Virus record (IMG/VR): IMGVR_UViG_3300024272_000072
From: an uncultured virus (IMG/VR IMGVR_UViG_3300024272_000072)
Taxonomy: Duplodnaviria; Heunggongvirae; Uroviricota; Caudoviricetes
DNA: 64,000 bases
Reading direction: 5' to 3' (one strand)
Position numbers and translations under genes: made by a program. The notes beneath the pieces are model-generated. The model had not been told where the DNA came from and searched no databases. It saw only the letters and a program-made list of their open reading frames with translations. Positions 2,692-34,139 of this stretch are shown in pieces (positions within the stretch are counted from its first letter, which is position 1; each line of letters starts with the position of its first letter).

Positions 2692-3921
2692 ATGAAAATT
2701 TTCAACCGGAATATTTCAAGAATCAATAAAAAGAGCATTGCAAAGAATTATTGATTGGATTTGTCTTTGTTATTCAATAACGATGTTGTTTTTTCAAAAC
2801 AAACATTTTACGATCTATACGCAAAAAACGGTGATATTCGCCAAGCCGTAAAGAAAATTGCCGGAAGTGTTGCGAGAAATTGAATATATTTACAAGACAA
2901 CGACAGACAAACCGTTGACGATAATGTTTTAACGGATCAAGTTTCAGATTTATTTAAAGCTCCAACATTTGCAAAGTTCAAAATTGATTTATACAGAAAT
3001 TATTTAATTTCATGAGAATTATATATTAAACCATTGAAGAATGCTTTTGATGAAACGATCAGATTTGACGTTATAGATTCAAGAGCAGTTACAAAAATAA
3101 TTAGTAATGGTGTTATTACATGATACAGAGTGGTTGAAAAAGACGGTGTAAAAATTCAAGAATATAAAGCCGATGAAATCGCATATTTCAAATATGAAAA
3201 CGATATAAACAATTCGTTAAATGGAATGTGAATTTTAACGAGCGTATTATATGACGCGGTGTTGGATTTGGAAGCATTGAAAACGAATTACAGTTTATAC
3301 AAGAACAGTGCAAGACCAGATATGTTGTTATTGCTTGACGGAAATTTAAGCGAAGAAGAACAACAAATCGCAACGGATAAATTTAGAGCACAATTTACAT
3401 GAAGCAACAACGCACATAAAGTTATTGTTGGGGGCGGAATTCAAGATATTAAAACACTTTCATTGACCGCAAGGGACATGGAAACAATAAGCCAAAGGAA
3501 ATTAACAACGGAAAAAATAAGTGCAACGTTTGGAGTTCCAAAAGCGATGTTATGATATGTTGAAGATGTAAATTATAATAATGGACAAAACCAAAAGGAA
3601 GAGTTTTTGGAAGGAACAATAAAACCATTCGAGCAAGATTTCGACGCAATATTGAATAAATTATTGCAAATGTTCAAGCCGGATATATTCAACAAATATT
3701 GGATAAAATCAGATTCCGAACAATTAAAGGAAACGCAAGAATGGTTGAATGGACAAAGGGCGGACGTGTTGGCGTGAATAATAACAATAAACGAAGCAAG
3801 GGTTGACAGATGATTGGAAAAGGTGGAAGATGAAAACGCCGACAAATTAATTACTTCAAGAAATCAAGTATTATTGGAAGATATAGCATTGGACGCAGTT
3901 TTACCATGAGATGAAATATAA
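2692..3921 (+). CDS. Portal protein, HK97 family
   Basis: NGMGILTS, YKNSARPD, GSNNAHKVIVG, ISATFGVPKAMLG, GIITINEAR motifs. Confidence 0.9.
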
Positions 3922-17590: not shown

Positions 17591-17900
17591 GGGTAACGGA
17601 GAAACCGATATAAAATGAAGCAAAAATTTCAACAGTACTCACGTCGTGAAATCCAGTGCGAATTGGAATAATACGTCGAAAGCAGGGGCTTTTGTGATGA
17701 ATCTGAATAATACTTCTTCGAATCGTAACACTAATATCGGGGCTCACTTAATTTCCAAAACCATGTCAAGCTTGTTTTATTCCAAAAGAGTAAAGCGAGC
17801 AAATTAAAACGGCTCCGTTACCTTGGCTCTTGCCAAAACATAAAAACTTTTAAAGCCGTGTTAGTAGGTAATCCGAACGCTTGGTGACATGGAACATCAA
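17591..17900 (+). ncRNA. DGR template RNA (TR 17631-17752 plus structured spacer)
   Basis: AAT/AAC-rich TR; 5' GGTAACGGAG pairs with CTCCGTTACC (17813-17822); TGGCTCTTGCCAAAACATA shared with phage B. Confidence 0.85.
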
Positions 17901-17906
17901 ATAAAA

Positions 17907-26249: not shown

Positions 26250-26666
26250 ATGGAAACACCAAAAAATCAAGGGGGGGGGGACGAATTAAACGGATTCACA
26301 GTAAACCCAGCGTTTTTATTACAAGACATGCCAGTGGATTTCTTCGATTTTCAATTCATAATGAATGCAAATTGAACATTGAAGGAAACAAGGTTTAATG
26401 ACCAAGTTCTTGATCCAGCAATTTGAAGCAGTTTATTCATTATTAAAGAGAAATATTTCAAGAAAATTAAACAGCATAAAATGGATAAAAAGAAAATTGA
26501 AAGCCACAAAGAAGAAAAGCAAAGAATGATTGACGCATGGAAACAAAAAGAGCACAATTATCAAGGACATATAAGGTATACAGAAAAAGCATGCGGTGAA
26601 CAAAAACGTTTATTATTAGCAATTGGAATGATTGCACACAATACAAAGAAAAGCCAAGAAATTTAA
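26250..26666 (+). CDS. Hypothetical protein with a G10 tract near the start
   Basis: Open frame through GGGGGGGGGG at 26271-26280. Confidence 0.55.
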
Positions 26667-29960: not shown

Positions 29961-30123
29961 AAGCCAAAAATTTTAACATGAAACAATGAATATGTTAAAA
30001 AATTTAACATGAAAAGAAAAAATAAGATTTTGAAAACAGCAAGGATTTAATTATATTCTTTGTATGCATAAGTAATTAAATTCTTGTAGAACCTTTGATT
30101 TATATTCAAAGGTGTTTTCATTT

Positions 30124-30573
30124 ATGACGAAAAAAGCCAAAAACCCAAAAATTGATAAAAAAAAATTGAATGATGAAAATGTGGAAATTGCCAAATTAAT
30201 TGCAAAGGTAAGGGATAAATATACATGCCAGCATTGTGGGAAAACAGCCAAGGAAACAGCAATACATGCAAGCCACATAATAAACGAAGCAAGAGATCAT
30301 AGACTTGCCAGCGATCCGGAAAATATAAAAGCATTATGTTATAATTGCCACATAAATTGGCGACATAAAAGCCCGATTGAAGCAAGCGAACGGTTTAATA
30401 AAAAGCGACCGTGAAGATATGATAAATTACAAGAAAAACACGTTGAATATATGGGTAAATGAAGCATTGACGTAATACGAATAATTGAAAGGAATAAATG
30501 GTTAAGGGAAATTTGCGAAGAAATGAAAATTGATATTTCAAAATTCAAGTATGGCGCAAAAATTGATTTATAA
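30124..30573 (+). CDS. NinG/Rap-like HNH endonuclease
   Basis: RDKYTCQHCG, HASHI, NIKALCYNCH. Confidence 0.7.
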
Positions 30574-30589
30574 TTAAACAAGGGAAATC

Positions 30590-31207
30590 ATGGAAATAAT
30601 AAATAAAAAAATCGATGAATTAATACCGTATGAATACAATAATAAAAAGCATGATGAAACGCAAGTAAACAGAATTGCAAATTCAATAAAGGAATTTGGA
30701 TTTACGCAACCGGTGGTAATTGATAAAAATAACGTGGTAATTATTGGACATGGAAGATTGGAAGCAAGCAAAAAATTATGATTAAAAGAAATTCCATGTG
30801 TAAAAATGGAAGATTTAACGGAAATACAAGTAAAGAAATTAAGAATATTGGATAATAAATTAAACGAATCAGAATGGGATTTGGAAAACTTGCAATATGA
30901 TTTGGCGACAATTCCGGATTTCAATATTGGGGAATTGGAAATAAATGTTGATGATCTATTCAATGATTTGTTTCCAGTTGATCCGGACGAATTGGATGAC
31001 AACTTTTCGTTGCCAAGCGGAGAAAAAGCACCATTTGGACAAATAACGTTTACGCTTGCCGACGAACAGAAAAAAGAAATCGAAGAAGCAATAAAGAAGG
31101 TAAAGGAAACAGATTTGTATAAAAGCCAAATGAATTATGGAAACGAAAACAGCAATTGAAACGCTTTATATTGTATTGTGAGCCAATGGATAGCGTTAAA
31201 TCAATAA
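30590..31207 (+). CDS. ParB/Srx-like N-terminal domain protein (DNA-modification associated)
   Basis: IDELIPYEYN..H...IANSIKEFGFTQPVVID..IIGHGRLEA. Confidence 0.8.
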
Positions 31208-31850
31208 TTGTAAAAGTGATTCCAAGTAAAATTGCAAATGAATTCGTAAAAAAGCACCATTATTCATGAAAGGTTGTGCCAAATTCACAGTTGCATTTCG
31301 GGTGCTTCTTAAATGGAATCTTGGGGGGGTTCTCTCTTATTGACCAAGCACAGATAAAAGCAAATTAATTGGGTTGGTGGAGTGAACCGAACGAAACGAA
31401 TTTATCGAATTAAACCGCATGGCTTTCAGTGATGTATTGCCAAGAAATAGTGAATCAAGGTGCATTGCAATAACAATAAGAATGATAAAAAAGCAAGCAC
31501 CGCAAATAAAACGAATAATAAGCTTTGCGGACGGTTGCCAATGTGGAGATTGAACAATATATCGTGCAAGTGGGTTTGAATTAACACAAATAAACCAAAA
31601 CAGATGATTAAGGGTTGATGAAAATGGTAAAGTTTACAGCCAAGTAACATTCTCCGCCCATAAACCAAACGAAATGGATAAATTCAGAAAAATGGAAAAA
31701 ATTGACGGCTTCATGTTGAGATATATAAAATTATTAAAACCAAACTTAAAAAGAAATTATGAAATAATCCCATATTCAGAAATAGACAATTATGGTGCGT
31801 GAATGTATAAAGGGGAAAAGGTAACAAGAAAAGAAAGACACACAAAATAA
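31186..31850 (+). pseudogene. mom: Mom-like (GNAT) adenine-modification enzyme, frameshifted at a G7 tract
   Basis: KHHYSGK..LHFGCF; after adding one G at 31323-31329: ELNRMAFSDVLPRNSESRCI..WIISFADGCQCGDGTIYRASGF; as assembled it stops at 31366-31368. Confidence 0.75.
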
Positions 31851-31865
31851 AAAAGTGTGTGTTAT

Positions 31866-31939
31866 GCGTGCGTGGTGTAATGGTTGCATGTTCACATTCC
31901 AGTGGAAGGAGAAAGTTCAAATCTTATCCGCACGCTCCA
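31866..31939 (+). tRNA. tRNA-Gly-like RNA, non-canonical
   Basis: Acceptor GCGTGCG/CGCACGC + T-CCA, D arm GTGTAATGGTTGCAT, TTCAAAT T-loop; 6-nt anticodon loop ATTCCA; bulged T stem. Confidence 0.7.
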
Positions 31940-31965: not shown

Positions 31966-32187
31966 ATGGACAAACAGCAAATGGAAAAAGAAATTAAAAG
32001 GTTGAATAAATTGGTGTGCCAACAAGAAATTGAATATCACCAATTATTGAGAACCGCAAAAAGGGTTGAGAAAAATTACGAAAATTTGGAATGGATCGTA
32101 AAGGTTGCAATAAACATGGTGTATGATAAAGACGAAAACGAAGCAATCGATTTCTTAACCAAACAATTTACAAGACATAAAATTTAA
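31966..32187 (+). CDS. Hypothetical protein
   Basis: ORF track, co-oriented. Confidence 0.45.
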   Translation: MDKQQMEKEIKRLNKLVCQQEIEYHQLLRTAKRVEKNYENLEWIVKVAINMVYDKDENEAIDFLTKQFTRHKI

Positions 32188-32207
32188 TTGGTAACGCATA
32201 AATAAAA

Positions 32208-32666: not shown

Positions 32667-34139
32667 ATGGATTACAACGAAGCAATAAACATATTCAAGA
32701 AAAGCCCATTATTAAGAAAAACATATTTTTCAACCAATTTCTTTGACTTTTGTAAATTCTATTTCATGGAATATTACAACTTTGAAACGCCAAAGTGTTT
32801 GGAGAAATATTACAACGCATTGGAATCATGAAAAAATGTTTATTTCAAGTGATTCCGTTGAAGTGCAAAAACAACCATCGCTCAAATGTATGTTTCATAT
32901 TGCATTGCATATAAAACACGCCGTAATATTATGTGGTATTCACAAACAATTGATAATGCGGAAGAAAATTTAACATATATTGCCAACAGCTTTATAAATG
33001 ATACGGACGCATGAGAAAGATTTTGCAGAGATTATGGAAACTTGTATTATCCGGAAACAGTTATTAAACAATGACAAAAGAAAATAAAAAGAATTGATAA
33101 ATTCGTAACAGAAAACAATTGTTATGTAAGAGCGATGTCACTTTGAACAAGCCCACGTGGTAAGAATTACACCGCACCGGACGGAAAATTCAGACCGGAT
33201 TTATTGGTGTTTGATGATGTGGACACGGTGCAAAGTTGCCAAAGCCGTAAAAAAATTGACAAAAACTTTGAATTCATGTTAAACGAAGTATTGGGTGGAA
33301 CAACGGGAGCAACACAGATAATATTTTTATGAAATACGATATATGAAGATTGAATCGTGCCAAGGTTTGAAGAACATATAAAGAACGATCCAACATGGGA
33401 AATTATAAACTTGCCAATATACGATGAACATAAAAATATTGTTTGGAATAGATTTGTGGAAACGGACGCAGAAGCACAAAAATTGAATGAATGAATCCGT
33501 GAAGTTGCAAAAAGATATGTTTCACTTGAAACCGAACGCAAGAGACTTTGAAGCATATCATTTAATCAGAATTATTTATTAATTCCATATGCAAATTGAC
33601 AGCACATCATCACACGTGATATGATTCAATATGATGAAAATTGCAGAAACTATCAATTCGATTTCATTCAGATTTGAGTTGATCCAGCAGTGAGTGAAAA
33701 AGAGTGAAGCGATGAATATGCAATCAATATGACGTGATTCATTTGAGACAGAATCTATCACCTTGAATCAATCTGATTGAACTGAAAAGAGAAAGACATT
33801 TGAGCGTCTGCGAATGTTGTGTTTCAGAATTATGAAAGATACAAAGCGAAAAGAGTGATTGTTGAAACAGTTGCTTATCAAGCAGTGTTGAAGAATGTGT
33901 TCAAACGCTTGTGAATGGCTGTTCAAGAATACAAAACAATCAAAGACAAAACGACCAGACTTCTTGAAAAACAAGTTCTGTTCGAAGACAAGAAAGTGTA
34001 TTTCGCGCCGTGATATTGAAACGACAAATTGATTGAACAGTTGCTTTCGTTCCCGAATGGCGAACACGATGACAGAATCGACGCGATGTTGCTTGCAATG
34101 CAACAACAAAACAAGAGCTTTTTTATTTCTGCATTTTAG
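32667..34139 (+). CDS. terL: Terminase large subunit (hybrid: 5' phage A, 3' phage B)
   Basis: GFRGSAKTT Walker A, FDDVD Walker B, GVDPA, FPNGEHDD. Confidence 0.9.
33210..33475 (+). repeat. 266-bp exact direct repeat, copy 2
   Basis: Identical to 117-382. Confidence 0.9.

Follow-up and report, generated by a model that had tools for sequence, protein, structure and literature searches.

The Mom protein of phage Mu modifies DNA with glycine from a charged tRNA, which was shown only in 2026. Here we describe a 74-nt tRNA-Gly-like RNA encoded directly behind a mom gene in an uncultured virus of the Caudoviricetes (IMG/VR record IMGVR_UViG_3300024272_000072). The whole stretch of 64,000 nucleotides that was analysed is called the window, and its positions are counted from the first letter. 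In the text of Silva et al. (Nat Commun 2026, PMC13219725), Mu Mom moves glycine from Gly-tRNA(Gly) to the N6 of adenine in double-stranded DNA; all three tRNA(Gly) isoacceptors of Escherichia coli work and Gly-tRNA(Ala) is rejected. The terminal riboadenosine of Gly-tRNA(Gly) is essential for Mom, the authors suspect that the acceptor end is recognised, and the residues R111 and S124 of the enzyme are essential. An earlier note on the window, made from the letters alone, had mentioned recent work with Gly-tRNA as the Mom donor, and this publication is the work in question. The Mom of the window belongs to the same family (PF25680), its C-terminal piece is 34% identical to Mu Mom, and it keeps the counterparts of R111 and S124; the co-substrate of Mu Mom is Gly-tRNA(Gly) with an intact CCA end. 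Mu differs in that it has no such element of its own and draws on the three host isoacceptors.

A related element was described by McMurdie et al. (BMC Genomics 2011, PMC3146451), whose text reports a 76-bp tRNA-Gly-like 'pseudo-tRNA' in the first 150 bp of a mom homolog in the ssrA islands of Dehalococcoides and in one fosmid. The gene order in these islands is the same as in the window, a ParBc-domain gene followed by mom, and the conserved tRNA-Gly-like fold of about 76 bp lies on the mom strand. The position differs, since the window element starts 15 nt past the mom stop, whereas the Dehalococcoides element lies in the first 150 bp of mom. The account of 2011 covers one bacterial genus and one fosmid, gives no function in its text and predates the Gly-tRNA discovery.

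FmhB of Staphylococcus aureus is fed by tRNA(Gly) species with weak binding to EF-Tu, which sequesters the proteogenic ones (Rietmeyer et al., NAR 2020, PMC7826273). The proposed likeness to these non-proteogenic tRNAs of the FmhB, FemA and FemB system is that a glycine-charged RNA would escape translation, being poorly recognised by EF-Tu and the ribosome, and would be preferred by a non-ribosomal aminoacyl transferase via features of the D and T arms. The staphylococcal tRNAs are chromosomal, form a lineage confined to staphylococci, have regular helices and serve cell-wall synthesis, whereas the window RNA comes from a phage, combines a bulged T stem with a degenerate anticodon loop and stands beside a DNA-modifying GNAT enzyme. 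We treat the window RNA as a functional analogue of the staphylococcal tRNAs and not as a member of their lineage.

Plant RNA viruses have 3' tRNA-like structures that can be aminoacylated and act in replication and translation. In common with the proposed carrier, they are virus-encoded mimics with an acceptor end that a host synthetase can charge and without a role in decoding, but they form the 3' ends of RNA genomes, whereas the window RNA is an element of a DNA phage tied to one enzyme gene. A search of the open-access literature, with subscription journals outside the scope, gave no paper connecting a tRNA-like RNA beside mom with the use of Gly-tRNA by Mom. A mom-linked tRNA is not mentioned in the main text of PMC13219725, in its text supplements (one picture-only supplement lay outside the scope) or in the 2023 preprint, and the text of PMC7824862 does not draw the link either. 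New with the window are a member placed after the mom stop, its occurrence in a ruminant-gut phage whose host reads TGA as glycine, and an apparent poly-G switch in the enzyme gene.

We conclude from the analysis that the window RNA belongs to an element family that is conserved as RNA and tied specifically to mom. It lies at 31866-31939 on the strand of mom, and a cloverleaf for the 74 nt is obtained by eye and in the Rfam tRNA alignment. The acceptor stem of 7 bp, GCGUGCG/CGCACGC, pairs 31866-31872 with 31929-31935 and contains G1-C72, C2-G71 and G3-C70. It is followed by U73 at 31936 and by an encoded CCA at 31937-31939. The D arm extends from 31875 to 31889 and has GG in its loop. The anticodon stem UUCAC/GUGGA, 31891-31895 with 31902-31906, carries a loop of 6 nt, AUUCCA (31896-31901). 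In the T stem, GAAAG/CUU-A-UC (31911-31915 with 31923-31928), an A is bulged at 31926, and the T loop is UUCAAAU (31916-31922). The bacterial glycine identity set of G1-C72, C2-G71, U73, C35 and C36 is complete. The tRNA shape, the glycine identity elements, the encoded CCA, the TCC in the loop, the 6-nt loop and the bulged T stem, which the earlier note had listed, are all present in the sequence.

As a canonical tRNA the window RNA fails on its 6-nt anticodon loop and its irregular T stem. ARAGORN found 0 tRNA genes in the window, the Rfam tRNA model RF00005 gave 23.5 bits, which is under the gathering score of 29, and the unconstrained fold of the 74 nt showed no cloverleaf (z -1.44). Judged alone, the RNA is of borderline shape. 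The covariance check of this interval that had been suggested before missed the threshold of the Rfam tRNA model but succeeded with a leave-out family model, termed R2, which was built from 45 sequences with the lineage of the window excluded. R2 scored the window RNA at 59.8 bits (E 4e-13), and the next match in the 64 kb had 10.1 bits (both strands, filters off). An identical 74-nt copy follows mom in the near-identical relatives L001, L002, L003 and L007, which have 98-100% identity over 1.8 kb.

The linkage to mom was analysed from both sides. A search with the C-terminal piece of the window Mom matched 117 viral stretches, 88 of which encode a relative, and the best 80 (38-97% identity) were used. 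ARAGORN was applied to 60 of these 80 loci. In 8 of them, the L017 group with a Mom of only about 52% identity, it called a tRNA-Gly(tcc) that lies 18 nt past mom. By eye, the same element was seen in most Mom loci, ending in ACGCUCCA. With a covariance model of 46 distinct sequences, termed R1, the element was found in 66 of the best 80 of the 88 viral Mom loci. In L053 it lies 750 nt downstream of mom. Bona fide tRNAs in the Mom loci did not score with R1, except for one tRNA-Leu with 20.3 bits.

For the reverse test, the motif GGCGG-N7-CCGACC-N5-GCUCCA was used, which contains no mom information. At least 120 viral matches were obtained and 80 loci were taken from them. All 80 contained a full-length element, and in 75 a match to the Mom hidden Markov model (HMM) was present on the same strand, 60 times just upstream and 15 times just downstream. 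The earlier note had named a lack of enrichment beside Mom homologs as evidence that would speak against its idea; the enrichment held from Mom to element and from element to Mom.

Five motif loci gave no Mom match. Two of them, L088 and L145, have almost no upstream DNA. In L095, the neighbour is a GNAT acetyltransferase on the other strand that matches the general GNAT family and not Mom. The remaining two are L111 and L151. A Pfam search of the open reading frames (ORFs) beside Mom-less elements found no Mom, only the GNAT protein in L095, a glycosyltransferase in L111 and an ABC substrate-binding protein in L222. In L151, a ParB-like gene is followed by a weak element (39.3 bits, ending at base 1029 of the oriented locus) and then by the terminase large subunit gene, with no mom between them; this element may be a relic left once mom was lost.

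In bacterial genome contigs, 80 loci were taken among the matches listed for the same motif and scored with R2. At least 39 bits were reached by 23 of them, 2 were weak and 55 gave no score. Mom was found within 1 kb of 16 of the 23 model-confirmed elements, but of 0 of the 57 other motif matches among those listed. The bacterial carriers include Micavibrio, Pseudolabrys, Anaerococcus, Clostridium, Faecalibacterium, Acidimicrobiales, Planctomycetota and Verrucomicrobiota, and also Dehalococcoidales and Dehalococcoidia, to which the published islands can be compared. The Psychrobacter phage vB_PmaS_Y8A (OQ059336, L082) has ParB, Mom and then two tandem D-armless elements at 2009-2076 and 2081-2149, which are unannotated. 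A second tandem pair was found in L113. In the T4-like Methylophilales phage Melnitz (L335, 2-75), a distant Mom-like gene is preceded, at about 930 nt, by a 30.8-bit match to the family model, which could be either a diverged family member or a normal phage tRNA.

The constraint on the element was then assessed in a MAFFT alignment of 46 distinct sequences, covering the acceptor and T stems. These stems were paired in 98.9% of the cells, compared with 37-43% when the partner was slid by 1-3 columns. Compensatory changes were seen in 10 of the 12 pairs, and the two that never vary are G1-C72 and C2-G71. In the acceptor stem, where missing covariation had likewise been named beforehand as a possible refutation, 5 of 7 pairs showed compensatory changes and 99.4% of the cells were paired. 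In model-fitted alignments, which lean towards structure, all four helices covaried, with 97% of the cells paired versus 33-45% when slid. The sum of G-U and U-G exceeded that of A-C and C-A in each comparison (40:6, 49:8 and 15:2) and therefore the folded strand is the mom strand. This asymmetry also disfavours a DNA-level site of the pac/cos or att type.

A conserved C-terminal peptide was considered in place of an RNA. Among the 65 loci in which the element follows mom, 20 have the mom stop ahead of the element and 5 have it within the 5' part of the element, whereas mom reads through the element in the other 40. The 40 read-through loci use three frames relative to the T arm (28, 9 and 3). 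In 14 of the 15 loci with the element ahead of mom, the element is part of the open mom frame, in frame within the first mom codons, and this placement matches that of the Dehalococcoides islands. The peptide was rejected on account of the three differing frames and of the loci in which mom does not read the element.

The same alignments bear on the possibility that the element is a relic, which would be either a host tRNA gene copied in the manner of an attP site or a functionless pseudogene in decay. Its Dehalococcoides version was annotated as a 'pseudo-tRNA' in the text of PMC3146451, and L151 retains its weak element between parB and terL without mom. A relic is nevertheless barely credible to us, because every helix shows compensatory changes and certain positions do not vary between phyla. 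In addition, the whole tRNA is present and not just its 3' half, and the module of the window is placed just ahead of the packaging genes, with no integrase beside the RNA.

The features kept by the family were counted in the 46 distinct sequences:
G1-C72, present in 46 of 46
C2-G71, present in 46 of 46
pair 3:70, G-C in 38, G-U in 6 and C-G in 2 (n=46)
discriminator base 73, U in 42 and A in 4 (n=46)
encoded CCA, present in 38 of 46
bulged A in the 3' strand of the T stem, present in 46 of 46

Within the family, conservation is highest at the acceptor end. Anticodon loops were counted in 50 and in 78 distinct rows. CC was present in 49 of 50 and 77 of 78 rows, and a canonical U33-UCC-purine37 loop in only 9 of 50 and 13 of 78. 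The loop has 6 to 8 nt, position 34 is U, A or C, U33 is often missing, and the first and last bases are often complementary. The T loop is often without U55 (UGCAACU, GGCAGCG), and many members are without the D arm that the window copy has. The common T stem is GGCGG/CCG-A-CC, compared with GAAAG/CUU-A-UC in the window, and the stem around the bulge covaries. The positions that the family keeps coincide with the published determinants for the bacterial glycyl-tRNA synthetase (GlyRS), which are G1-C72, C2-G71, U73, C35 and C36 (PMC10464925). The positions lost are, as read from the aligned sequences, those needed for decoding and for the canonical elbow. The bulged A presumably falls among the T-stem pairs that are contacted by EF-Tu. 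The binding of EF-Tu is governed by three T-stem base pairs (PMC3239215).

An ordinary phage tRNA-Gly(UCC) for GGA and GGG codons, next to mom by chance, would account for the full cloverleaf of the window copy, its canonical T loop, the GG in the D loop and the UCC in the anticodon loop, and also for the tRNA-Gly(tcc) calls of ARAGORN in the 8 relatives of the L017 group. We regard this as highly improbable. The loop of the window copy has 6 nt, and in the family the loop varies in length and at position 34, often has no U33 and has ends that can pair. The bulged T stem is invariant, the bona fide tRNAs at the same loci fail the family model even in the best case (the tRNA-Leu with 20.3 bits), and chance would not produce so regular a linkage to mom.

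Our preferred reading, which we hold with slightly better than even confidence, is that the 74-nt RNA is a phage-encoded glycyl carrier for Mom, chargeable but not suited to translation. The host tRNA-processing enzymes would excise it from a transcript shared with mom. The host GlyRS would then charge it with glycine via G1-C72, C2-G71, U73, C35, C36 and the CCA end, as the conservation of these positions suggests. The degenerate anticodon loop and the invariant bulged T stem would keep the RNA from EF-Tu and the ribosome. Finally, the RNA would give its glycine to Mom for transfer to the adenine N6 of the phage DNA, the chemistry that is published for Mu. In this phage, the length-variable poly-G tract would also switch the enzyme gene, and the G7 of the window would correspond to the OFF frame.

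The conservation of the acceptor end could also point to a decoy, shield or inhibitor that soaks up a host anti-phage factor hitting tRNA(Gly) acceptor ends or holds Mom inactive until late infection. The toxSAS defence effector FaRel2 selects tRNA(Gly) via the acceptor stem (PMC11559606). However, the tight linkage is to mom and not to phages generally, nothing connects the hosts of these phages with such defences, and an invariant bulged T stem would serve no obvious purpose in a decoy. We consider such a role quite improbable.

The placement of the element relative to mom raises another possibility, a tRNA mimic that acts in cis in the mom transcript. Mom would then bind this mimic of its substrate and repress its own translation, or cleavage by RNase P/Z would limit or separate the mRNA, and either would result in dosage control of a dangerous enzyme with no aminoacylation. 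Aminoacyl-tRNA synthetases are known to autoregulate through tRNA-like operators. Except for L026, L095 and L267, where it is opposite to the neighbouring Mom or GNAT gene, the element shares the strand of mom in all loci seen, and it lies inside the mom ORF in most loci of either order, as counted above. In the window, no promoter or terminator signal above chance was found between mom and the element. Mu, which is without the element, has its own translational regulator Com by annotation. On the other side, 20 loci including the window have the element past the mom stop, and a cleavage signal needs no full GlyRS identity set with the distal C35 and C36 and an encoded CCA. Because tandem copies (Y8A, L113) and opposite-strand copies (L026, L095, L267) exist, a product acting in trans is favoured over a purely cis role, which we judge unlikely.

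Several observations weigh against the glycyl carrier. A private carrier is not obligatory, since Mu Mom uses all three host isoacceptors, and with R1 no element was found in phage Mu. In the best 80 of the 88 viral Mom loci, 14 are without the element. Among 15 cultured or annotated phage Mom loci, 13 gave no match within 1.2 kb (Y8A has the element and Melnitz the weak 30.8-bit match). Of the 23 bacterial-genome elements among the matches listed, 7 have no detectable Mom within 1 kb. The mom frame runs across the element in 40 of the 65 loci with the element behind mom and in 14 of the 15 with the opposite order. Its excision there would cleave the mRNA, and a cis role suits this arrangement no less well. 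The mom gene of the window itself is out of frame (G7). The charging may be poor for some members, since the family is mostly U4:A69 (30 of 46) and many members are D-armless; for the GlyRS of L. plantarum, D-armless tRNA(Gly) is described as charged very poorly and a purine4:pyrimidine69 pair as preferred. G3-U70 is the alanine identity pair, and its presence in 6 of the 46 sequences gives these members a possible alanine identity.

An extended form of the carrier reading, to which we give somewhat less than an even chance, would cover a large subfamily of Mom in phages and islands. Its members would use their own translation-incompetent tRNA-Gly-like RNA, and not the host pool, as an obligate glycyl donor. 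The RNA would be recognised via the invariant bulged A of the T stem, which would insulate the hypermodification from EF-Tu and from attacks of the host on tRNA. Where the element lies in the ORF, each transcript would become either enzyme or carrier, and in the code-25 phage a poly-G tract would turn the enzyme gene ON (G8) or OFF (G7, G9).

If the carrier reading is true, the RNA would be the first aminoacyl carrier that a virus encodes specifically for DNA modification, hard-wired to mom across many phyla, and it would explain the 'pseudo-tRNA' that has been unexplained since 2011. It would also hint that Mom recognises its co-substrate through the acceptor and the T arm with the bulged A, and it would provide a compact two-part system of enzyme and private carrier for tRNA-dependent DNA chemistry. 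The cultured phage vB_PmaS_Y8A, with ParB, Mom and two tandem copies, makes the idea open to a direct test.

The window is phage DNA of 32% G+C, in which long ORFs appear only when TGA is read as a sense codon. The features of the locus are all on the plus strand:
30112-30573, HNH endonuclease gene (Pfam PF01844, E 5.8e-6), upstream of parB
30590-31207, ParB_N-like gene, read with TGA as glycine (Pfam PF02195, E 5.5e-8; PHROG 620, E 4.6e-43)
31186-31850, mom as a whole, split across two frames
31186-31329, N-terminal piece of mom, from the ATG at 31186 through the poly-G tract (PF25680 positions 2-43, 36.6 bits)
31323-31329, poly-G tract G7, which breaks the mom frame of the window
31330-31850, C-terminal piece of mom in the -1 frame relative to the N-terminal piece, with the TAA at 31848-31850 (PF25680 positions 31-200, 116.3 bits)
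31866-31939, tRNA-Gly-like RNA of 74 nt, from its sequence and the family covariance model
32667-34139, terminase large subunit gene (PHROG 38, E 3.5e-60; Pfam Terminase_6C)

The 3' end of the ParB-like gene and the start of mom share 22 nt. Two small ORFs are located between the tRNA-like RNA and the terminase large subunit gene, and a portal gene follows the terminase. The sequence and Pfam bear out the earlier description of a Mom gene behind a ParB-like gene with a tRNA-shaped RNA 15 nt past the mom stop. The pairing of ParB and Mom is also found more widely: 57 of 80 related loci have a ParB-like gene immediately before mom and in the same orientation.

The curated cut-off of the Pfam family PF25680 (Mom) is 27.1 bits, and both pieces of the window gene exceed it, as the profile search proposed in the earlier note was meant to establish. 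PHROG 1384 'Mom-like' matched the window Mom with E 2.8e-33, and the PDB entry 8bv8 was matched by its C-terminal piece with E 2.8e-20. R111 and S124 of Mu Mom align with R78 (motif ELNR) and S91 (NSES) of the intact protein of L002, and the same motifs are present in the C-terminal piece of the window. The 'repaired' Mom of the earlier note thus held as a member of the family, but the window copy has no single intact frame, as its poly-G tract is G7 and varies in length.

One added G restores the mom frame of the window. In the window, as in L001, the tract counts seven G (G7). Eight (G8) are present in L002 and L003, which encode an intact Mom of 221 amino acids, and nine (G9) in L007 and also in a goat-gut DNA contig. 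In the relatives with a G8 mom, the N- and C-terminal pieces are contiguous. The same codons (..VLGGV..) are written as a G8 or G9 run in L005, L006, L046 and L051, whose homologs are 58-69% identical; the run keeps the frame in L005, L046 and L051 and breaks it in L006. In other homologs, the site is coded without a G run. Judged from these sequences, the run looks like a conserved contingency tract that flips mom ON (G8) and OFF (G7, G9), with assembly noise as a possible alternative. The variable tract suggests a stochastic switching of the anti-restriction modification of the phage. The idea that the RNA with the 6-nt loop suppresses a -1 frameshift at G_GGG_GGG in mom via doublet decoding was dropped, because the tract merely differs in length (G7, G8, G9) between near-identical relatives. 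The AUUCCA 6-nt loop is also present in loci without such a tract.

A second G run, G10, is located at 26271-26280 in codons 8-10 of an ORF that starts with the ATG at 26250. Together with the mom tract, it is the only G or C run of at least 7 in the 64 kb of this 32% G+C DNA, and the ORF at 26250 may be another switchable gene.

The mom gene of L002 was also used for the genetic code. It has seven in-frame TGA codons, six of which stand in columns with a glycine majority (47 to 63 of 64 homolog rows). The seventh is in a variable column, and 0 of the 7 align with tryptophan. One GGA codon of the window is a TGA in L002. The alignment confirmed TGA=Gly as the predicted code of this phage. This part of the earlier note stood, but its suggestion that an own carrier is possibly useful in a host with a Gly-tRNA pool reshaped by TGA=Gly is unnecessary, because most members of the family occur in standard-code, often GC-rich phages and bacteria.

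A sequencing-run search matched the stretch to ruminant gut and feces metagenomes and to two RNA libraries. The contigs of the RNA libraries cover 30986-31287 and 31452-31650 (X19) and 32006-32194 (X20), none of them reaching the tRNA-like RNA; DNA carry-over is possible, and such contigs cannot reveal the ends or the levels of an RNA. A signal scan gave 15 promoter-like sites around the module compared with 12.2 expected, and no terminator between mom and the RNA. In the loci L017-L021, L024, L029, L034 and L068, the element lies between the inverted repeats ACACGGCA and UGCCGUGU (at about 3590-3690, except for L019 and L021, which have coordinates of their own). This inverted repeat could close a stem around the tRNA-like RNA and may be a processing stem. 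Elsewhere in the window, the RT-17 RNA of Rfam (RF03020) was found at 17819-17904 on the plus strand with 47 bits, compared with a gathering score of 40.4, and it is the sole Rfam match at threshold.

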